From positions 67,069 through 131,068 of the forward strand of contig CAVPJY010000012.1 of the NCBI GenBank assembly GCA_963705535.1: DNA of 64,000 nucleotides, written 5' to 3'. The stretch comes from an uncultured Actinomycetes bacterium. GTDB lineage: Bacteria > Actinomycetota > Thermoleophilia > Gaiellales > Gaiellaceae. The notes beneath the pieces were generated by a model. It made no database searches and was not told the DNA's origin. It saw nothing but the letters and a program-made list of their open reading frames with translations. Shown here piece by piece: positions 9,900 through 55,637 of the stretch (position 1 is the first letter of the stretch; each line of letters starts with the position of its first letter). A program made the position numbers and the translations under genes.

Positions 9900-9973
9900 T
9901 GGGCCCGCCTGGACTCGAACCAGGGACCAACCGATTATGAGTCGGCTGCTCTGACCAGCTGAGCTACGGGCCC
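9900..9973 (-). tRNA. tRNA with anticodon CAT (elongator Met, or Ile2 if lysidinylated); CCA not encoded
   Basis: Hand-folded cloverleaf. Acceptor stem GGGCCCG/CGGGCCC. D arm GCTC-AGCTGGTCA-GAGC. Anticodon arm GCCGA-CTCATAA-TCGGT. T arm CCTGG-TTCGAGT-CCAGG. Discriminator A. Confidence 0.9.
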
Positions 9974-17612: not shown

Positions 17613-18506
17613 TCAGCCGCGCAGCGCGCTCGTGAACGTCGGCTCGGACGCAGTCCTGCGCAGGCGCTCGAAGTGCTCGGAGGCGTAGCCGACGAAGTCG
17701 AAGTCGAGCGCGGAGACGGCGCACTGCACCACGCCCCACATCGCCTCGCGGAAGTCGGACATGAAGCGCATGAGCTCGAGCGCGGCCTCGTCCTCGGCTC
17801 GCGTCGCCCCGAAGTAGGAGTCGAGGAGCCGTCGCCGACCGTCCGCGTCCAGCTCGTGGTTGATCGCGAAGTTCGCGAGGTCGAAGAAGCGATCCCCCAT
17901 CCCGGCGTACTCCCAGTCGACGACGAAGAGCCGCTCGCCGTCGTCGAGGAAGTTCGCGTTCAGGAGGTCGTTGTGGCAGGGCACCGGGGTATCGGCCGCG
18001 CGCAGCCGCTCGATCCGCCCCGCGCGCTCGTGTGCCCACTCGTAGTCGGCCGGGATCGTCCCCCCGCGAGAGAGCGCGGTGTCCCGGTACTCCTCCACGA
18101 CGCGGAACGCGTCGAAGCGGCCGGGGATGGGGGCGCCCTCGTGGAAGAGCCTGAGCGCGCGGGCGACGCGCTCGAGCGTCTTTGGCTCGCGCATCCGCGC
18201 GAGCGACGGGATCTCGCCGGCCACGAACCGGGTCACGAGCCAGCCTTCCGGCTCGACGAACTGCACGACGTCCGGTCCGATGCCCAGCACAGCGGCCGCG
18301 CGCGTGGCTGCGAGCTCCACGCCCCGGTCGATCCCCAGGAGCTCCGTGTCCTTGCCCGCGACGCGGAGGACGTACGTGTCGCCGTCGAGCTCGACCTTGA
18401 CATTGTGGTTCGTGATCCCGCCCCCGAGAACCTCGAAGCGCGCGCCTCGACCGGGCCAGACGCGCTCCACGGCAGCTGCGAGGTGGTCGGTCATGGGCGC
18501 TGACAC
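17613..18506 (-). CDS. Choline/ethanolamine kinase-family phosphotransferase (APH fold)
   Basis: ORF track. Has GGITNHNVKV, CHNDLLNANFL and VVDWEYAGMGDRFFDLANF (Brenner and DxD motifs). The start is either GTG at 18506 or ATG at 18494. Confidence 0.8.
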   Translation of the reverse strand: MSAPMTDHLAAAVERVWPGRGARFEVLGGGITNHNVKVELDGDTYVLRVAGKDTELLGIDRGVELAATRAAAVLGIGPDVVQFVEPEGWLVTRFVAGEIPSLARMREPKTLERVARALRLFHEGAPIPGRFDAFRVVEEYRDTALSRGGTIPADYEWAHERAGRIERLRAADTPVPCHNDLLNANFLDDGERLFVVDWEYAGMGDRFFDLANFAINHELDADGRRRLLDSYFGATRAEDEAALELMRFMSDFREAMWGVVQCAVSALDFDFVGYASEHFERLRRTASEPTFTSALRG

Positions 18507-18558: not shown

Positions 18559-20970
18559 TCACGCGCGAATCCGCTCGCGGCGCGGGTCGAAGAGCGGCTC
18601 CGCCGCGACCTCGCCCCCCACCCACTCTCCGAATATCTCCACCGCGACCTCCGTCCCGACGTCGTGCTCGGTGGGCAGGTACGCGTACGCGATCGAGCGC
18701 TCGACCGTGTAGCCGTAGCCTCCGCTCGTCACCCGCCCCACGAGCTCCCCGCCCGCGCGAACGGGCTCCGACCCGAGAGCAACGGCCCGTGGGTCGTCGA
18801 GCACGAGGCAGCGGAGCAGGCGCTCGGGCTCCCCGGCGGCCGCCAGCGCCTCGCGTCCCGTGAACGCGCCCTTGTCCAGCTTGACGGCGAAGCCGAGACC
18901 CGCCTCGAGCGGTGTGTCCTCGGGCGTGATGTCCGCGCCCCAGACCCGGTAGCCCTTCTCCAGGCGCAGCGAGTCGATCGCCTTGTAGCCGCCGGCCACG
19001 AGGTCGTGAGCACGCCCGGCCTCCCACAACGTGTCCCAGAGCGCGAGGCCGTACTCCGCCGGGCAGTAGAGCTCCCAGCCGAGCTCGCCGACGTACGTCA
19101 CGCGCAGCGCGAGGCACGGCACGTGCCCGACTGCGAGCTCGCGCGCGCGCATGTACGGGATCGACTCGTTGGACAGGTCCTCGGTCGTCAGCGGTTGGAG
19201 GATCTCGCGCGCCTTCGGGCCCCAGAGCCCCAGGCAGGCGTAGTGGGACGTGACGTCCATCACGCGCGCCGACCCGTCCTCGGGCTCGTGCTGCCGGATC
19301 CAGGCGAGGTCGTGCTGGCCGAACGCCGTTCCCGTGACGATGCGGAACCGGTCCTCCGCGAGCCGCGTGACCGTGAAGTCGCACTCGATCCCGCCCCGGG
19401 CGTTGAGCATCTGCGTGTAGGTGACCTGCCCGACGTCGCGACCGACGCGGTTCGCGCAGAGGCGCTCGAGCAGGTCCGCGGCGCCCTCGCCCGTCACCTC
19501 GATCTTGGCGAACGAGGACTCGTCGAAGAGCGCAGCGGCCTCGCGGCACGCGACGTGCTCGGCGCCGATCGCGGCCGACCAGAGCTTGCCCGCCCACCCG
19601 CGTGGGCGAAGCGTCTCGTCGCCGCCGGCAGCGTTGGGCTCGAACCAGTTGGCGCGCTCCCAGCCCGCCTTCTCGCCGAAGGCGGCTCCGAGCTCGACGA
19701 GCCGGGGATAGGCGGGCGAGAGCCGGAGCGGGCGACCGGCCGCGCGCTCGTGGCCGGGGTACTTGACGTCGTAGTAGGTCTCGTACACCTCCCTCGTGCG
19801 CGCGAGCGTGTACTCCGGGCTCCGGTACGCCGCCCCGAAGCGGCGGGAGTCCATGTGCCACACGTCGAGCGACGGCGTGCCCTCGACGATCCACTCCGCG
19901 ACCAGCTTCCCGAGGCCCCCGGCGCCGGCCAGGCCATGGGCGCAGAAGCCGGCCGCGACCCAGAAGCCGCGCACGTCCGACGGCCCGAGGATGAACTCGC
20001 CGTCGGGCGTGAAGGCCTCGGGGCCGTTGATCAGCCGGACGACCTCCATCTCACCCAGCGAGGGCACGCGGACGAGGGCGTTCTCCATGAGCTCCTCGAA
20101 GCGCGGCCAGTCCTCCTCGAGGAGCTTCGAGTTGAAGTCGGCCGGGATGCCGTCGAGACCCCAGGGCGCGCAGTGCCGCTCGTAGCCGCCCATGACGAGA
20201 CCCCCGGACTCGGGGCGGAAGTAGACGAGGAGCGACGGGTCGCGCATCGTGGGCATCTCGAGTGGGAGCCCGGCGGGCTTCGTCACGAGGTATTCGTGCG
20301 CCATAGGGACGATGGGCACGTTCACCCCTGCCAGCTCGCCGATCTCGCGCGCGTACATGCCCCCCGCGTCGATGACGATCTCCGTCTCGATCTCGCCGCG
20401 ATCGGTCTCGACCGCCTCGACGCGACCGCGTTGCACGCGGACGCCGGTCACTCGAGTGCGCTGCTCGATCTCGGCTCCGCGGCGCCGCGCTCCCTCGGCC
20501 AGGGCGAACGTGAGCTGGCTCGGGTCGACGTAGCCGTCCGTCGGGAGGTACGCAGCCCCGAGCACGCCGGCGGTCGACATGGGCGGGAAGAGCTCCTGTG
20601 CGTCCGTCGGGGAGATCAGCTCGAGCGGCAGGCCGAACGTCTTCGCCCAGCCTGCCTGCCGCGCGATCTCCTCCATCCGCTCCTGCGAGGACGCGAGCCG
20701 GAGCGACCCCACCTCGCGCCATCCGGTCTCGAGCTCGACCTCTGCCTCGAGCGAGCGGTAGAGGTCGACGCTCGCCATCATCATCTTCGTCAGGGAGAGC
20801 GAGCCGCGCAGCTGGCCCACGAGACCCGCGGAGTGGAACGTGGAGCCGCTCGTGAGCTCGGCGCGCTCGAGAAGCACGACGTCCCCCCAGCCGAGTCGCG
20901 CCAGCCAGTAGAGCACCGAGCAGCCGCCGACGCCGCCGCCGATCACCACCGCCCGCGCCCGGTCCCGCAT
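18559..20970 (-). CDS. FAD-dependent oxidoreductase fused to a GcvT-type aminomethyltransferase domain (dimethylglycine/sarcosine dehydrogenase family)
   Basis: ORF 18559..21348 trimmed to ATG at 20970 (MRDRARAVVIGGGVGGCSVLYWLA, a Rossmann GxGxxG). The C-terminal half has the GcvT folate-binding domain (GYKAIDSLRLEKGY...). Confidence 0.9.
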   Translation of the reverse strand: MRDRARAVVIGGGVGGCSVLYWLARLGWGDVVLLERAELTSGSTFHSAGLVGQLRGSLSLTKMMMASVDLYRSLEAEVELETGWREVGSLRLASSQERMEEIARQAGWAKTFGLPLELISPTDAQELFPPMSTAGVLGAAYLPTDGYVDPSQLTFALAEGARRRGAEIEQRTRVTGVRVQRGRVEAVETDRGEIETEIVIDAGGMYAREIGELAGVNVPIVPMAHEYLVTKPAGLPLEMPTMRDPSLLVYFRPESGGLVMGGYERHCAPWGLDGIPADFNSKLLEEDWPRFEELMENALVRVPSLGEMEVVRLINGPEAFTPDGEFILGPSDVRGFWVAAGFCAHGLAGAGGLGKLVAEWIVEGTPSLDVWHMDSRRFGAAYRSPEYTLARTREVYETYYDVKYPGHERAAGRPLRLSPAYPRLVELGAAFGEKAGWERANWFEPNAAGGDETLRPRGWAGKLWSAAIGAEHVACREAAALFDESSFAKIEVTGEGAADLLERLCANRVGRDVGQVTYTQMLNARGGIECDFTVTRLAEDRFRIVTGTAFGQHDLAWIRQHEPEDGSARVMDVTSHYACLGLWGPKAREILQPLTTEDLSNESIPYMRARELAVGHVPCLALRVTYVGELGWELYCPAEYGLALWDTLWEAGRAHDLVAGGYKAIDSLRLEKGYRVWGADITPEDTPLEAGLGFAVKLDKGAFTGREALAAAGEPERLLRCLVLDDPRAVALGSEPVRAGGELVGRVTSGGYGYTVERSIAYAYLPTEHDVGTEVAVEIFGEWVGGEVAAEPLFDPRRERIRA

Positions 20971-21032
20971 GCGGGGACAGTAATCCGACCGAGCGCGGGC
21001 GGCAGTGTGACGCGGCGAGCGGGGCCTGCCGC

Positions 21033-21095
21033 CGCAAATTGCGCCGAATTCCTTCGGACCCGCCCTTGAAGGACGTGGCCCTATGTGCATAGAGT
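21033..21095 (+). promoter_or_regulatory. Unit A: palindrome CGCAA-A-TTGCG plus promoter (TTGAAG, 18 nt, TAGAGT)
   Basis: Palindrome at 21033-21043, -35 at 21066-21071, -10 at 21090-21095. Read directly. Confidence 0.5.
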
Positions 21096-21101
21096 GCCGC
21101 T

Positions 21102-21245
21102 GCGCCGAGCACGGGGCGCCGGTAGGACGAAGCCCCCCGAGGAGCACTACGCGGAAGCGGAACGTTCGTCGGGAAGGTGGACAAAAGCGTTCCCGGCTCG
21201 GCGAATACTTTGCGGCCGGGCCTTCGGGCCCGGCCGTTCTCTCTC
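21102..21245 (+). ncRNA. Candidate structured small RNA, unit A (diverged paralog of units B and C), with terminator
   Basis: The 5' GCGCCGAG (21103-) pairs with CTCGGCG (about 21197-21203). Internal hairpins GGGG...CCCC and CGC-GGAA-GCG. Terminator GGCCGGGCC-TTCG-GGCCCGGCC at 21214-21235, followed by GTTCTCTCTC. Confidence 0.4.
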
Positions 21246-21301
21246 GAAGCACTAGAGCACGCGCTAGAGCGCGCAGTTCGACTCTGTGCGAAAAGAAAAC
21301 T

Positions 21302-21363
21302 TCGCAATTTGCGACATGTTCACTTTCGGATGCCTTGACGCCCCCCACGGGTGTCCCTAGTGT
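21302..21363 (+). promoter_or_regulatory. Unit B: palindrome TCGCAA-T-TTGCGA plus promoter (TTGACG, 17 nt, TAGTGT)
   Basis: Palindrome at 21302-21314, -35 at 21335-21340, -10 at 21358-21363. Confidence 0.5.
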
Positions 21364-21370
21364 CCGGCTT

Positions 21371-21480
21371 GCACCGAGTACGGAGCACCGGAGGTTGAAG
21401 GTTTCTCCGAGCGGCAGTCGCTTCGGCGGCGGTCAGTCGGAAAACCGGACGAAGGTGTCACCGGCTCGGTGCATTTCTTT
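21371..21480 (+). ncRNA. Candidate structured small RNA, unit B (~110 nt)
   Basis: Closing helix GCACCGAG (21371-21378) with CTCGGTGC (21465-21472), followed by ATTTCTTT. Internal hairpins GGAG...CTCC, GTCGC-TTCG-GCGGC and GTCGG-AAAA-CCGGAC. Confidence 0.45.
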
Positions 21481-21486
21481 GCTCTT

Positions 21487-21744
21487 CCTTCCCGCAGCTC
21501 GGTGCTCCGCGAACGCGGAGCACCGAGCGCGAAGATCCCTGAAGGCGGCCGCTTCGCGGCCGCTGTCGCGCGTCAGGACCGCCTCGAGACGACAGGAGGG
21601 GAGATCGCCCCGTCTCCTTCCCGCAGCTCGGTGCTCCGCGAACGCGGAGCACCGAGCGCGAAGATCCCCGAAGGCGGCCGCTTCGCGGCCGCTGTCGCGC
21701 GTCAGGACCGCCTCGATACGACAGGAGGAGCTCGCCCCGTCGCC
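21487..21744. repeat. Two tandem copies of a 129-nt REP-like module
   Basis: CCTTCCCGCAG starts at 21487 and again at 21616. Each copy holds hairpin CGGTGCTCCGC-GAAC-GCGGAGCACCG, then GATCCC(T/C)GAAG, then hairpin GCGGCCGC-TTCG-GCGGCCGC. The copies differ at only a few positions. Confidence 0.85.
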
Positions 21745-21757
21745 TTTTGTCAACCTT

Positions 21758-21820
21758 CGCAATTTGCGCGAAGTTCGTTCTGAGGCGCGCTTGACCCAGG
21801 GGCCCTCGCCTGCATAGAGT
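21758..21820 (+). promoter_or_regulatory. Unit C: palindrome CGCAA-T-TTGCG plus promoter (TTGACC, 18 nt, TAGAGT)
   Basis: Palindrome at 21758-21768 (also CTTCGC...GCGAAG at 21755-21773), -35 at 21791-21796, -10 at 21815-21820. Confidence 0.5.
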
Positions 21821-21826
21821 GGGGAT

Positions 21827-21935
21827 GCACCGAGTACGGAGCGTCCGAGGTTGATGGTTCTCCGAGCGGCAGCCGTTTCGGCGGCGGTCAGTCGGAAAGC
21901 CGGACGAAGGCGCCACCGGCTCGGTGCATTTCTTT
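21827..21935 (+). ncRNA. Candidate structured small RNA, unit C (~109 nt, about 90% identical to B by eye)
   Basis: Closing helix GCACCGAG (21827-21834) with CTCGGTGC (21920-21927), followed by ATTTCTTT. Hairpin GCCGT-TTCG-GCGGC keeps pairing relative to unit B. Confidence 0.45.
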
Positions 21936-21937
21936 GT

Positions 21938-22060
21938 CCGCAGCTCGGTGCTCCCCGGGGGAACACCGAGTGCGAATCCCTGAAGGCGGCCGCTTCGCGG
22001 CCGCTGTCGCGCGTCGAGACCAGCGGCTCCACGAAGCGCCGGCGCCACCTCTGAAGACGC
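21938..22060. repeat. Third, diverged REP-like module
   Basis: Hairpin CTCGGTGCTCCCC-GGGGGAACACCGAG, then AATCCCTGAAG, then hairpin GCGGCCGC-TTCG-GCGGCCGC. Same architecture as 21487-21744. Confidence 0.75.
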
Positions 22061-22081
22061 GCGCCGGGGCCGAGCGGCTCG

Positions 22082-23248
22082 GTGCGTATGCTCGAACGCG
22101 TGCGACGGCTCCTCGTTCTCGTCTCCGCGGTGATCTTCGTGGACGCGATGCTCTTCACCGCCCTGACACCGCTCGTGCCGGACTACGCGGACGAGTTCGA
22201 CCTGTCGAAGACCGGCGCGGGCCTCCTCCTCGGGGCGTTCGGCGCGGGTGCGCTCCTCGGCGGCGTCCCAGGAGGAATCGCCGCGGCGAGGCTCGGGCCG
22301 AGGACGGCCGTCGTGGGCGGCCTCGTCCTGCTCGGCGTCGCGAGCTTCGCGTTCGCGGCCGCCGACACCGCGGCGACGCTCGGAATCGCACGGTTCGTCC
22401 AGGGCTTCTCGAGCACCACCACCTGGGCAGGCGCTCTCGCCTGGATCGCCGTGGCGGCGCCGGCTTCGAGACGCGGTGAGGTGATCGGGACGGCCTTCGG
22501 CGCCGCGGTGTTCGGCGCGATCATCGGGCCGATGTTCGGCGGCGTGGCCGAGGCGGTGGGGATCCGCCTCGCGTTCGGGACACTCGGGGTCGTCGCCCTC
22601 GGCTTCGCCGGGCTCGCGCTCCTCCCCCGCTCGTCGGACTGCGAGCCGCTCACCCGCAGCGGCCTCGCGCGTGCGTTCTCGGACACCCGCTTCATCGGAG
22701 GGCTCTGGCTCAACACCCTCCCCGCGCTGCTCTTCGGAACGCTCGCGGTGCTGGCGCCGCTCGCCCTCGACGACGCCGGCTGGACGACGCTCGCGATCGG
22801 ATCCGTCTTCTTCGCCGCAGGCCTGCTCGAGGTGGTGATCAGCCCGATTCTCGGGCGTACCAGCGACCGGCGCGGCCGGCTCCTCCCCATCCGTGCTGCA
22901 CTCGCGGCGTCGATCGTCGTCGCGAGCCTGCTCGCGCTCGCGTCGCAACCCGCGGCAATCGCAATCCTCATCGGCGCGGCAGCGTTGAGCTTCGGCGGCT
23001 TCTACGCTCCGGGCATGGCCCTGACCTCGCACCGCGCCGAGACGGCCGGCCTCGCGCAGGGTCTCGCGTTCGGGATCATGAACAGCGCGTGGGCGCTCGG
23101 GAACATGACGGGACCGGTCGCGGGAGGCGCGCTCGCGTCTGCCTTCGGCGACGCGGCTCCCTACCTGCTCGGCGCCGGGCTCTGCGCGCTGACCCTCCTC
23201 GCGAGCCAGCGAGTCGTCGGGCGGGGGGTGAGACCGCGTGAAGCGTGA
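22082..23248 (+). CDS. MFS transporter
   Basis: ORF track (GTG at 22082; alternative ATG at 22088). About 12 TM helices. The LGPRTAVVGGL loop is the MFS motif-A position. Confidence 0.9.
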   Translation: MRMLERVRRLLVLVSAVIFVDAMLFTALTPLVPDYADEFDLSKTGAGLLLGAFGAGALLGGVPGGIAAARLGPRTAVVGGLVLLGVASFAFAAADTAATLGIARFVQGFSSTTTWAGALAWIAVAAPASRRGEVIGTAFGAAVFGAIIGPMFGGVAEAVGIRLAFGTLGVVALGFAGLALLPRSSDCEPLTRSGLARAFSDTRFIGGLWLNTLPALLFGTLAVLAPLALDDAGWTTLAIGSVFFAAGLLEVVISPILGRTSDRRGRLLPIRAALAASIVVASLLALASQPAAIAILIGAAALSFGGFYAPGMALTSHRAETAGLAQGLAFGIMNSAWALGNMTGPVAGGALASAFGDAAPYLLGAGLCALTLLASQRVVGRGVRPREA

Positions 23249-23834
23249 GGACTGGAACCGTCGCTACACGGAGGTCGATTCGCTCTGGAGCCTCACGCCC
23301 AACCGGTTCCTCGTCGCCGAGGTTGCGGGCCTCCGTCCCGGACGTGCGCTCGACCTCGCCTGCGGCGAGGGCCGGAACGCGATCTGGCTCGCGGAGCGAG
23401 GCTGGCACGTGACAGCCGTCGACTTCTCCGACGTGGCGATTGCCAAGGCCCAACGCCGCGCAGCGGACGAGGACGTCGACGTCGACTTCCAGGTGGAGGA
23501 CCTGCTCGCCTTCGAACCCGAGGCTCGCGCGTTCGACCTCGTCCTCGTGCTCTACCTGCAGCTCCCGGCCGCGGAGCGCCGCAGCGTCCTCGTCACGGCC
23601 GCGGAGGCGGTCGCCCCCGGAGGGACGCTGCTCCTCGTCGGCCACGACTTGCTCAACGCGACCGAAGGGGTCGGGGGCCCGAGCGACCCGGGCGTCCTGT
23701 ACACACCCGACGACATCGTCGCGGAGCTGCACGGGCTCGAGATCGAGAAGGCCGAGCGCGTCCACCGCGACGTGGACGACGCGGAGCGGCCCGCGATCGA
23801 CGCCCTTGTGCGGGCGACGCGGCCACACCGGTGA
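23238..23834 (+). CDS. Class I SAM-dependent methyltransferase
   Basis: ORF track. Motif I is ALDLACGEGRNAIWLAERG. Overlaps the MFS stop. Confidence 0.85.
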   Translation: MKREDWNRRYTEVDSLWSLTPNRFLVAEVAGLRPGRALDLACGEGRNAIWLAERGWHVTAVDFSDVAIAKAQRRAADEDVDVDFQVEDLLAFEPEARAFDLVLVLYLQLPAAERRSVLVTAAEAVAPGGTLLLVGHDLLNATEGVGGPSDPGVLYTPDDIVAELHGLEIEKAERVHRDVDDAERPAIDALVRATRPHR

Positions 23835-24301
23835 CCGCGTCCCGGGACGAGCGCCACCTCCGGCGCACGCTCGAGCTCGCGCGACTCGCACGCGAGCGCG
23901 GGAACCACCCCTTCGGCGCGCTCCTCGCCGATCCTCGGGGCTCGGTGATCGAGGCCGAGAACACGCTCGTGACGGACCCGGACTGGACGGGGCACGCGGA
24001 GCTGAACGCCGTGCGTGCCGCGGGCGCCGCGCTCGGGCTCGTGGACCTAGGCGCGTACACCCTGTACGCGAGCACCGAGCCGTGCGCGATGTGCACGTCG
24101 GCCGCGTACTGGGCAGGAGTCGGGCGGATCGTGTTCGCCCTCGGCGCCGAGAGGTTCCGCGAGCTCGCCGGCATCGGCGAGGACGGGGAGAAGCTCGCGC
24201 TCTCGTGCCGAGACGTCCTCTCCCGCGGCGGGCGCAGCGTCACGGTCAGCGGGCCGCACCTCGAGGAGGAGGCCTGGGCCGTCCACGACGGCTTCTGGTG
24301 A
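23831..24301 (+). CDS. Nucleoside/nucleotide (CDA-fold) zinc deaminase
   Basis: ORF track. Has the HAELNAV and PCAMC zinc-ligand motifs. GTGA overlap with the methyltransferase gene. Confidence 0.85.
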   Translation: MTASRDERHLRRTLELARLARERGNHPFGALLADPRGSVIEAENTLVTDPDWTGHAELNAVRAAGAALGLVDLGAYTLYASTEPCAMCTSAAYWAGVGRIVFALGAERFRELAGIGEDGEKLALSCRDVLSRGGRSVTVSGPHLEEEAWAVHDGFW

Positions 24302-24365: not shown

Positions 24366-24492
24366 GCGGCCGCGAAGCGGCCGCCTTCAGGGATTCGGTC
24401 GCACTCCCGGCTCGCGCGAGCGAGCCGGGAGTGCTGGCCAGGGAATCAGGGATTTCGCGCGGCCCTGGATCCGCTTCTGCGGATCCAGGGCC
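24366..24492. repeat. REP-like three-hairpin element
   Basis: Hairpin GCGGCCGC-GAAG-CGGCCGC (24366-24384), then CTTCAGGGAT, then hairpin GCACTCCCGGCTCGC-GCGA-GCGAGCCGGGAGTGC (24401-24434), then hairpin GGCCCTGGATCCGC-TTCT-GCGGATCCAGGGCC (24461-24492). Lies between convergent genes. Confidence 0.8.
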
Positions 24493-47240: not shown

Positions 47241-47294
47241 CGCCGTGGCACGACCCGTTTGACAGCGCTCGACACGGCTCATCCGAGCGAGAAG

Positions 47295-47660
47295 TGGAGG
47301 CGGCGGGAATCGAACCCGCGTCCGCGGCCGCACCGAACAGGGCATCTACGAGCGTAGTCCGCGCTTGATCTCGCCCGACGGCCGGTTCGCGGACGACCAA
47401 CCGACGGGCCAGCCATCCTGAAGAGTCGCGCTCCGGGCGATTGGCTCTCCCTCGGCACCGAGCCCGATCGTTGGCGCCGGCTCCCGGATCTCGGGCCGAA
47501 TCCGGGTCGGCGTCGCCTTACCTAGCTACTAACTAGGCGGCGAGTGCGAGTTCGTTCTTGTTCGCACTTGCTTTGGTGCCGGTTGATTTACGAGGCCAAC
47601 CGGCGACCTCGGCTCGCAGCTCTGCCGGAGAACCGACCACGTCGAGACCTGGTCGCCCCC
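47295..47660 (-). ncRNA. ssrA: tmRNA (SsrA), tag peptide (AS)ANKNELALAA
   Basis: The 5' end GGGGGCGAC pairs with the 3' end CGCCTCC-A, including a G3:U pair. T arm GCGGG-TTCGATT-CCCGC. The tag ORF GCG AAC AAG AAC GAA CTC GCA CTC GCC GCC TAG runs from 47565 to 47533. smpB lies 7 kb away. Confidence 0.93.
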
Positions 47661-53727: not shown

Positions 53728-53800
53728 CCGGAATCCGCTGACGCGCGGATTCCGGCCGCGCGATGATTCCCGAAGGCGTCCGCTTCGCGGCCGCTGTGTC
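53728..53800. repeat. REP-like element
   Basis: Hairpin CCGGAATCCGC-TGACGC-GCGGATTCCGG (53728-53755), then GATTCCCGAAG, then an imperfect GCGTCCGC-TTCG-CGGCCGC hairpin. Confidence 0.7.
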
Positions 53801-55441: not shown

Positions 55442-55637
55442 GCTGCGCACACGCAGCGACAAGACCGCGAAGCGGCCGCCCTACGGAGACATGTCCGTTG
55501 AGTGAAAGGCGCGATCAGGCCGCGAAGCGGCGGCCCTGTGGGGGCCTGTCCGTTGGGTGAAAGGTGGGATCAGGCCGCGAAGCGGCCGCCTTTAGGGGTC
55601 TCGCGCGTCCGGGGATCCGCTCCGGCGGATCCCCGGA
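55442..55637. repeat. REP-like array: about 2.5 tandem copies of a 55-nt unit plus flanking hairpins
   Basis: The core (G)GCCGC-GAAG-CGGC(C) occurs at about 55464, 55518 and 55573, and ...GTCCGTTG(A/G)GTGAAAGG(C/T)G(C/G)GAT occurs twice. Terminal hairpin TCCGGGGATCCGC-TCCG-GCGGATCCCCGGA at 55608-55637. Confidence 0.8.

Follow-up and report, generated by a model that had tools for sequence, protein, structure and literature searches.

What is carried by the intergenic region between a DMGDH-like (dimethylglycine-oxidase-like) gene and an operon headed by an MFS transporter gene in an uncultured member of the Gaiellaceae, where the same arrangement of palindrome, promoter and structured segment is met three times in succession? 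The DNA in question is a stretch of 64,000 nt from contig CAVPJY010000012.1 (assembly GCA_963705535.1, positions 67,069 to 131,068), which is referred to as the window and numbered from its first base. A first-pass annotation had claimed that three independently promoted, operator-preceded and paralogous structured small RNAs of an unrecognised family lie here in a row. This description is upheld by comparison with other genomes: the array is found in about 90 of them with its promoters, palindrome and terminators kept, the fold shows covariation, and no Rfam family matches. The region probably contains three co-regulated sibling small RNA (sRNA) genes of a single new family, one of type A followed by two of type B. 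It is the RNA family that is new; the arrangement, in which tandem siblings share a regulator, is already known.

Architecture of the array

The intergenic region holds, on the + strand, three paralogous units (A, B and C), each composed of a palindrome, -35 and -10 boxes and a hairpin of about 105 nt in the shape of a rod. The palindromes, boxes, spacers and unit positions given in the first-pass annotation were all present when checked against the sequence. At 6 nt past each -10 box stands a T, and then GCGCCGAG or GCACCGAG, at which the RNA is predicted to start. The parts of the array are as follows.

21033-21043: palindrome 1, CGCAAATTGCG, centre about -63 from the start of unit A
21066-21095 (+): promoter of unit A, -35 TTGAAG (21066-21071), 18-nt spacer, -10 TAGAGT (21090-21095)
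21101-21205 (+): unit A, type A RNA, rod of about 105 nt, basal stem GCGCCGAG/CUCGGCG, GGAA tetraloop at the apex, 102.6 bits with the covariance model
21212-21245 (+): predicted intrinsic terminator following unit A, a GC hairpin of 11 bp closed by a UUCG loop (21212-21237), then T/C-rich UUCUCUCUC
21252-21299 (+): conserved inter-unit block, CTAGAGCA .. GCGCAGTTCGAC .. TGTGCGAAAAGAAAA, between the type A terminator and palindrome 2
21302-21314: palindrome 2, TCGCAATTTGCGA (CGCAA-N-TTGCG core at 21303-21313), centre about -62 from the start of unit B
21335-21363 (+): promoter of unit B, -35 TTGACG (21335-21340), 17-nt spacer, -10 TAGTGT (21358-21363)
21370-21473 (+): unit B, type B RNA, with U-rich tail AUUUCUUUG to 21481, 111.4 bits with the covariance model
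21758-21768: palindrome 3, CGCAATTTGCG, centre about -63 from the start of unit C
21791-21820 (+): promoter of unit C, -35 TTGACC (21791-21796), 18-nt spacer, -10 TAGAGT (21815-21820)
21826-21928 (+): unit C, second type B RNA, with U-rich tail AUUUCUUUG to 21936, 119.1 bits with the covariance model

A 34-nt core at the 3' side, common to units A to C (GTCGGRAA..GGACRAARG..CCGGCTCGG), has exactly three copies in the 64 kb, against 0.00 expected, and neither this core pattern nor the covariance model finds a further copy of the unit in the window.

The units do not belong to a known RNA family as represented by the 4227 models of Rfam 15, in agreement with the failure of the first-pass annotation to recognise the fold. 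At gathering thresholds only a tmRNA and one tRNA were detected in the whole window, with nothing on the units, while a permissive scan of positions 20900-22200 (E-values up to 10) gave weak matches to hairpins, none of them covering the body of a unit, the best scoring 10-23 bits against thresholds of 39-218. Since the tmRNA (47292-47660, - strand, 152.6 bits) and the tRNA (9900-9973, - strand, CAU anticodon) were found, ordinary RNA families can be detected by Rfam in this lineage. Comparison by eye with the signal recognition particle (SRP) RNA, Y RNA, the glycine, guanidine-I, guanidine-III and glutamine RNAs, the hammerhead and the sarcin-ricin loop produced only short chance resemblances, among them that of CCGGACGAAGG to the guanidine-III core and that of GAGUACGGAG to the sarcin-ricin loop, and no match to a model. 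Literature searches pairing Gaiella, Gaiellales or Thermoleophilia with RNA terms returned nothing relevant on the non-coding RNAs of these bacteria.

Distribution in other genomes

A scan with the core pattern of one genome per species, encompassing 185,579 species, identified 97 stretches. Four of these were chance matches in unrelated phyla and contained no unit; the other 93 lie in metagenome-assembled genomes (MAGs) labelled Gaiellaceae, Gaiellales, Thermoleophilia, or only Actinomycetes or Actinomycetota. A covariance model and a profile hidden Markov model made from the first alignment recovered many more copies than the strict pattern, while DNA patterns loose enough to admit all units carry about 27 bits, which is too unspecific for scanning metagenomes. 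Using nhmmer, exactly three units were found in 75 of 94 loci (numbered here with the prefix L), and the shorter arrays are mostly situated at the ends of contigs or of the 8-kb chunks searched. The order of the units does not change: the first is always of type A (GCGCCGAG..., with the GGAA apical loop), and the second and third are of type B (GCACCGAG..., usually with a UUCG loop). The clade's ancestral arrangement is the three-unit array seen in the window.

A repetitive DNA element, such as a miniature inverted-repeat transposable element (MITE), a repetitive extragenic palindromic (REP) sequence or a recombination site, was considered as an alternative to genes. The ends of each unit are indeed inverted repeats, and a true dispersed repeat (GGCGGCCGC-TTCG-GCGGCCGC, six copies in 64 kb) adjoins the units. 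The units themselves are distributed quite differently. There is one stretch per MAG with two exceptions, namely L064 and L084, which come from one MAG, and L073 and L091, which are one array split over two contigs. As both exceptions can be explained, this distribution is that of a single-copy, clade-specific locus and not of a dispersed repeat. Furthermore, the units are syntenic in about 90 genomes and carry strand-specific signals, and nothing similar to them was found in collections of plasmid and phage records or in viral contigs. The dispersed MITE that the first-pass annotation had held out as the alternative is thus not seen, there being one locus per genome, with compensatory changes between genomes. 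This explanation is largely refuted, and the chance that it is correct seems very small.

Two of the arrays depart from the common form. The MAG MFD02159.bin.2.13 contains two complete arrays with flanking genes on two contigs (L064 and L084), reflecting either a real duplication or a bin in which two strains are mixed. In Gaiellaceae bacterium KatS3mg012 (L080, positions 150-240), a TAGACT box is followed, in the position of type A, by a short hairpin, GCGCCGUUCUC-GAGG-GAGAACGACGGCGC, which retains nothing of the unit but the basal-stem sequence; two type B units come next, with no MFS gene downstream.

RNA fold and sequence conservation

Each unit is predicted to fold into a single irregular hairpin of about 104 nt (-54 to -57 kcal/mol), with z-scores of -3.9, -5.0 and -5.2 for units A, B and C, respectively, and none of 200 shuffled sequences as stable. 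A hand-drawn structure of 28 pairs was evaluated on 46 diverse units. Standard pairs occupy 96.7% of the cells, changes on both sides of the helix, i.e. compensatory ones, occur in 14 of the 28 pairs, and none of 500 shuffles reaches any of the five measures used, a control that is inflated by the relatedness of the genomes. When the partners were slid by 1-3 columns, pairing fell to only 26-44%. The covariation signal is located in the upper helices, and five divergent loci (L021, L024, L085, L062 and L089) have the same rod made from different helix sequences. Almost no variation is seen in the basal stem (GCRCCGAG/CUCGGYGC), in the two short stems that follow it or in a large purine-rich internal loop, where AGGUUGAU or AGGACGAA on the 5' side faces GGACGAA on the 3' side, and for this reason these parts neither support nor contradict the fold.

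These results qualify two statements of the first-pass annotation. The suggestion that structure is more conserved than sequence applies to the upper half of the rod, but not to the basal stems and the large internal loop, where the sequence itself hardly changes. Similarly, the differences between units B and C in the apical hairpin do preserve pairing, in that G-C is exchanged for G-U, but they are one-sided rather than double compensatory changes; true compensation is found between the A and B types and between genomes.

It is the + strand that is functional: the covariance model gives it 78-123 bits, whereas the - strand receives no more than 37.6 bits, and the alignment contains many G-U pairs. 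The level of conservation was expressed as mean pairwise identity across 60 genomes. The RNA bodies of the first, second and third units are 95%, 90% and 86% identical, respectively, compared with 77% for the MFS coding DNA, 50% for the spacer between the -35 and -10 boxes, 44% in the region with the type A terminator and 28% further upstream.

A short coding gene was also considered, as at the start of some type B units a nine-codon open reading frame (ORF) can be read (ATG CAC CGA GTA CGG AGC GTC CGA GGT TGA). Many of the predicted type B starts do read ATG or GTG, with a conserved TGA nine codons on. However, the first base varies freely between A, T, G and C, the T pairs with an A in the 3' strand of the stem (pair 2-111), type A contains no such ORF, and conservation is uniform over codon positions and extends about 75 nt past the stop codon. 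Of all the explanations considered, this one is the hardest to credit.

Putative promoters and operator

Promoter features are retained in 87 of 91 first units, all 90 second units and 74 of 76 third units. The consensus of the -35 box is TTGATC in first, TTGACG in second and TTGACC in third units; the spacer is mostly 17 nt in length, and the -10 box, TAGNGT or TAGATT, mostly has its end 6 nt ahead of the G that opens the basal stem. The bases between the promoter elements vary freely across genomes. The constancy of the boxes and of the 6-nt gap implies that the predicted transcript begins exactly where the rod does. A simple promoter scan of the window reported only the promoter of unit C.

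The palindrome CGCAA-N-TTGCG is present in three copies in the window, each of them upstream of a unit, where 0.04 would be expected by chance, and is found nowhere else in the 64 kb. Across genomes, the shorter form GCAA-N-TTGC is centred between -61 and -64, counted from the G with which the stem begins, in 55 of 93 first, 77 of 89 second and 46 of 75 third units, the remainder carrying degenerate versions. Only one further such site was found in about 750 kb of related loci, and none elsewhere in the window. The palindrome is thereby placed one helical turn upstream of the -35 box. Sites of dimeric class-I activators are classically centred near -62. The sharing of a palindrome at a position typical of such activators makes it most likely that one dedicated DNA-binding protein switches all three genes jointly, and this protein would be an activator. 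One lead to its identity, and only a lead, is the motif CGC-N5-GCG, the operator of the ClgR type of actinobacterial XRE-family activator. The site found here, (T)TCGC-AANTT-GCG(A), fits the bare CGC-N5-GCG and lies upstream of the -35 box; in its inner bases it departs from the consensus of Corynebacterium.

It had also been proposed that one protein, bound at the first palindrome, gates both unit A and the divergent DMGDH-like gene. This may hold in the window, where the palindrome is at about -68 from the DMGDH-like start, but such bidirectional control was rejected as a general feature as it is unconserved: the distance ranges from 25 to more than 1000 nt, and in many loci the DMGDH-like gene is not the upstream neighbour.

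Putative terminators and the relationship to the MFS operon

The type A rod is followed directly by a separate hairpin and a run of T in 70 of 86 genomes, with weaker versions in the rest, and the sequence of this hairpin is unconserved. In units B and C, ATTTCTTTG stands directly after the unit, and at least six T within 12 nt past the basal stem are found in 83 of 90 second and 72 of 76 third units. The type B basal stem and its U-rich tail therefore look like an intrinsic terminator formed by the RNA itself. On the - strand, the palindrome and a T-run at the inter-unit block can be read as a small terminator-like site.

The last of these putative terminators lies close to the MFS operon, and the genes on either side of the array are as follows.

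18559-20982 (-): DMGDH-like gene with DAO, FAO_M and GCV_T domains, including its promoter (-10 TACTGT 20982-20977, ATG 20970)
22087-22102 (+): promoter and start of the MFS operon, -10 TATGCT (22087-22092), 7 nt, start GTG at 22100
22100-23248 (+): MFS_1 transporter
23238-23834 (+): class I S-adenosylmethionine-dependent methyltransferase
23831-24301 (+): dCMP_cyt_deam_1 deaminase of 156 aa, overlapping the end of the methyltransferase gene

By tblastn, the MFS transporter was found downstream in 82 loci and the methyltransferase in 63. One possible reading is that the units, especially the third on account of its closeness, belong to the 5' leader of the MFS-methyltransferase mRNA, as a riboswitch-like attenuator terminating transcription unless a ligand or protein intervenes. 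Several observations accord with this: the array is upstream of the MFS gene on the same strand in all 82 loci while the upstream neighbour varies, the third unit ends with its terminator-like stem and U-tract 23-60 nt before the MFS start in most loci, and the invariant internal loops could form a ligand pocket. The MFS promoter speaks against it. A TANNNT box (TATCCT, TACGCT, TAGGCT and others) is found 6-8 nt, mostly 6-7 nt, before the ATG or GTG in 78 of the 82 loci, regardless of the distance to the unit, and most of the database MFS homologues among the matches listed are called at 382 aa, which corresponds to the same start. A -10 box at such a spacing is the arrangement of a leaderless mRNA, known from start maps of Mycobacterium and Streptomyces. 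As the MFS gene has its own -10 box at leaderless spacing, the units do not appear to be its 5' leader, and a read-through transcript would lack the start codon at its 5' terminus. Furthermore, each unit has its own promoter and type A a strong terminator of its own, arrays without a downstream MFS gene exist (L075 and L080), and no riboswitch family matches. No competing terminator and anti-terminator structures were evident in the unit folds, although they were not searched for systematically. Overall, a leader or attenuator is an unlikely explanation of the array.

A different role for the proximity is that of promoter-terminator cassettes, in which transcription and termination on top of the MFS promoter would set its expression by interference or insulation, the RNA being incidental. 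There are more than 30 loci in which 10-15 nt separate the end of the third unit's U-tract from the MFS -10 box downstream, such that a terminating RNA polymerase would sit on the MFS promoter, and on reading the sequence this promoter has no recognisable -35 box. On the other hand, the promoter spacers and terminator region are much less conserved than the RNA body, and the helices of the latter compensate; were transcription all that counted, neither would be expected. Two further units stand between type A and the MFS gene, and the distance from the third unit to the MFS -10 box can be anything from about 10 to more than 100 nt. We regard this explanation as less probable still than that of a leader.

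The first bases of the MFS mRNA in most genomes, (A/G)UGCGCCG (22100-22107), match the start of the type A RNA, UGCGCCG (21101-21108). This resemblance could be due to chance, as the sequence encodes Met-Arg-Arg, to shared ancestry or to a constraint on initially transcribed sequences.

A purine-related operon was suggested by the deaminase gene and discarded, as this gene was found only in the window and in its closest relative, L061; it is thus a recent addition to the operon. Among the MFS homologues, the 120 proteins in the matches listed are all at least 72% identical, and no more distant relatives were seen there. On the other side of the array, the neighbour is usually the divergent DMGDH-like gene (63 loci), with other genes in the remaining loci. 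Its start also looks leaderless, with a TANNNT box 5-8 nt upstream in 53 of 58 loci. It is accompanied by genes for a choline-kinase-family kinase, an amino-acid permease and a glutamine-synthetase-like protein, and together these look like a catabolic cluster for methylated or phosphorylated amines. The kinase (17613-18506, - strand, choline-kinase/APH family) matches the NCBIfam model of GntI, a pre-guanitoxin N-oxide kinase, with E = 3.8e-97 and 325 bits, which is below the cut-off of 357.

Repeats between the units

A feature of the region absent from the first-pass annotation is a 129-nt direct repeat, present in two copies between units B and C and in a partial third copy between unit C and the MFS promoter. 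Each full copy contains a 15-bp perfect hairpin, then a GGCGGCCGC-TTCG-GCGGCCGC hairpin. These repeats are a lineage-specific insertion and do not belong to the conserved array.

21486-21599 (+): first copy of the 129-nt repeat
21615-21728 (+): second copy
21938-22021 (+): partial third copy

The 15-bp hairpin, GCUCGGUGCUCCGCG-AA-CGCGGAGCACCGAGC (21497-21528 and 21626-21657), is a copy of the duplex that forms the basal stem of the units (GCACCGAG/CUCGGUGC), but its two strands have changed places, as would result from joining the 3' end of one unit to the 5' end of the next. The GC-rich hairpin GAAGGCGGCCGC-TTCG-GCGGCCGC is dispersed, with six copies in 64 kb against 0.01 expected. Three of these are inside the 129-nt repeats; another, with a different perfect hairpin ahead of it, occupies the convergent gap that follows the deaminase gene. 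The dispersed hairpin has the look of a mobile module of this lineage, similar to a REP sequence or a terminator.

21541-21563, 21670-21692, 21982-22004 and 53772-53794 (+): dispersed hairpin
24366-24388 and 55571-55593 (-): dispersed hairpin

Interpretation

If the array does consist of three sibling sRNA genes, each would be transcribed on the + strand from its own promoter of the housekeeping type, starting at the first base of the rod. The type A transcript would end at the separate GC hairpin and U-rich terminator, and the type B transcripts at their own GC-rich basal stem and U-tract. A single dedicated DNA-binding activator at the palindromes would turn on the three genes jointly. In the lower half of the rod, the almost invariant basal stems P1-P3 and internal loop may be the site bound by a conserved protein or other macromolecular partner, and the three RNAs could then act in trans as its regulators or decoys. 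Probably the abutting leaderless MFS promoter is also insulated from upstream transcription by the third unit's terminator.

A number of observations weigh against this model. The transcripts, with their starts and ends, are predictions from sequence. All of the relatives are MAGs of one clade, whose relatedness lends the shuffle control some of its apparent strength. Covariation within type B is modest and mostly one-sided, and the strongest signal derives from the comparison of type A with type B and from a small number of divergent lineages. As the basal stem never varies, it contributes no covariation, and a constraint at the level of DNA could be the reason for its constancy. Among first and third units, about 40% carry a degenerate palindrome. 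Finally, a purely trans-acting role does not account for the position next to the MFS operon, which is kept almost constantly (82 loci).

A more specific proposal sees in the three RNAs a new riboregulator class. The lower half of the rod, with its quasi-symmetric GGACGAA / AGG-N-N-GA loop, would bind a core cellular protein, a complex or a small molecule with high affinity; type A would serve as a free-standing decoy, the two type B copies would couple the same recognition to termination on the leaderless MFS promoter, and one dedicated activator would drive all three. We put this forward tentatively, as a possibility that has the odds against it, if somewhat less so than a leader of the MFS mRNA. 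If true, the array would be a control circuit based on RNA for which no counterpart has been described in the Actinomycetota.

The Gaiellaceae and their relatives are among the most abundant Actinomycetota of soil, and are almost uncultured. In them, an RNA family appears to be conserved above the level of neighbouring coding DNA, as a fixed set of three genes with a dedicated regulator site, and constraint of this kind usually marks an RNA that binds an important partner. Two traits of the array are unusual, namely this conservation above that of the adjacent coding DNA and the abutment of a terminator on a leaderless promoter. The latter, an apparent sRNA terminator set against a leaderless promoter, offers an example of how actinobacteria may pack and insulate their transcription units. 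The predictions of transcription starts, RNA ends, operator and fold are precise to the single base and can be tested directly, and the covariance model built here can be used to annotate the RNA family.

Comparison with known systems

In their dimensions the units resemble the small bacterial SRP (4.5S) RNA and Y RNAs, being about 100-115 nt in length, having paired 5' and 3' ends that give a rod, and being very highly conserved. The resemblance to SRP RNA extends to a GNRA apical loop (GGAA) above a 4x4 internal loop in type A. However, the internal loop of the units is ACUA/GAAG rather than of the AGG/AGCA type found in SRP RNA, and there are three paralogs. Scanning with cmscan at E-values up to 10 gave no match of SRP (RF00169), Y RNA or YrlA on the units, and no gene for the Ro protein (rsr) was found among the neighbours examined.

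The thiS-motif riboswitch for hydroxymethylpyrimidine pyrophosphate (HMP-PP) has a counterpart to type B, in which the basal stem and U-tract double as a terminator just upstream of a transporter gene. The array differs from riboswitches and attenuators of the thiS type in that the transporter has its own leaderless promoter, each unit has a promoter of its own, type A stands alone, and no Rfam riboswitch matches. The decoy sets GlmY/GlmZ, CsrB/CsrC and RsmY/RsmZ consist of paralogous structured RNAs with a shared protein-binding module and a dedicated upstream transcription factor. An invariant module beside variable helices would fit such a protein-binding role, while the motif of the units is not of the type with GGA in a hairpin loop.

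The first-pass annotation regarded three such RNAs in a row as an unusual regulatory module. The module is new with respect to the RNA family, but the concept has precedents in other tandem sibling sRNAs, such as PrrF1/PrrF2 in Pseudomonas, OmrA/OmrB in E. coli and the tandem Pxr paralogs of Cystobacter (PMC5568312). Pxr orthologues are reported to be as conserved as 23S rRNA (PMC5568312), and RcoF1/2 is another pair of paralogous sRNAs (PMC5449619). The array shares with these systems, at the level of sequence, paralogs arranged head to tail, each with its own promoter and terminator, the same regulator site at each promoter, and high conservation. There is no homology to them in sequence or structure, and the units are long, nearly fully paired rods without an obvious single-stranded seed. 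Hfq is not known from most Actinobacteria. The promoters of PrrF1/PrrF2 carry Fur boxes, and those of OmrA/OmrB are controlled by OmpR. Systems of the Fur type repress, whereas the position of the site here, at -62, suggests activation; and, unlike the arrays of these tandem siblings, the one described here directly abuts a leaderless promoter.

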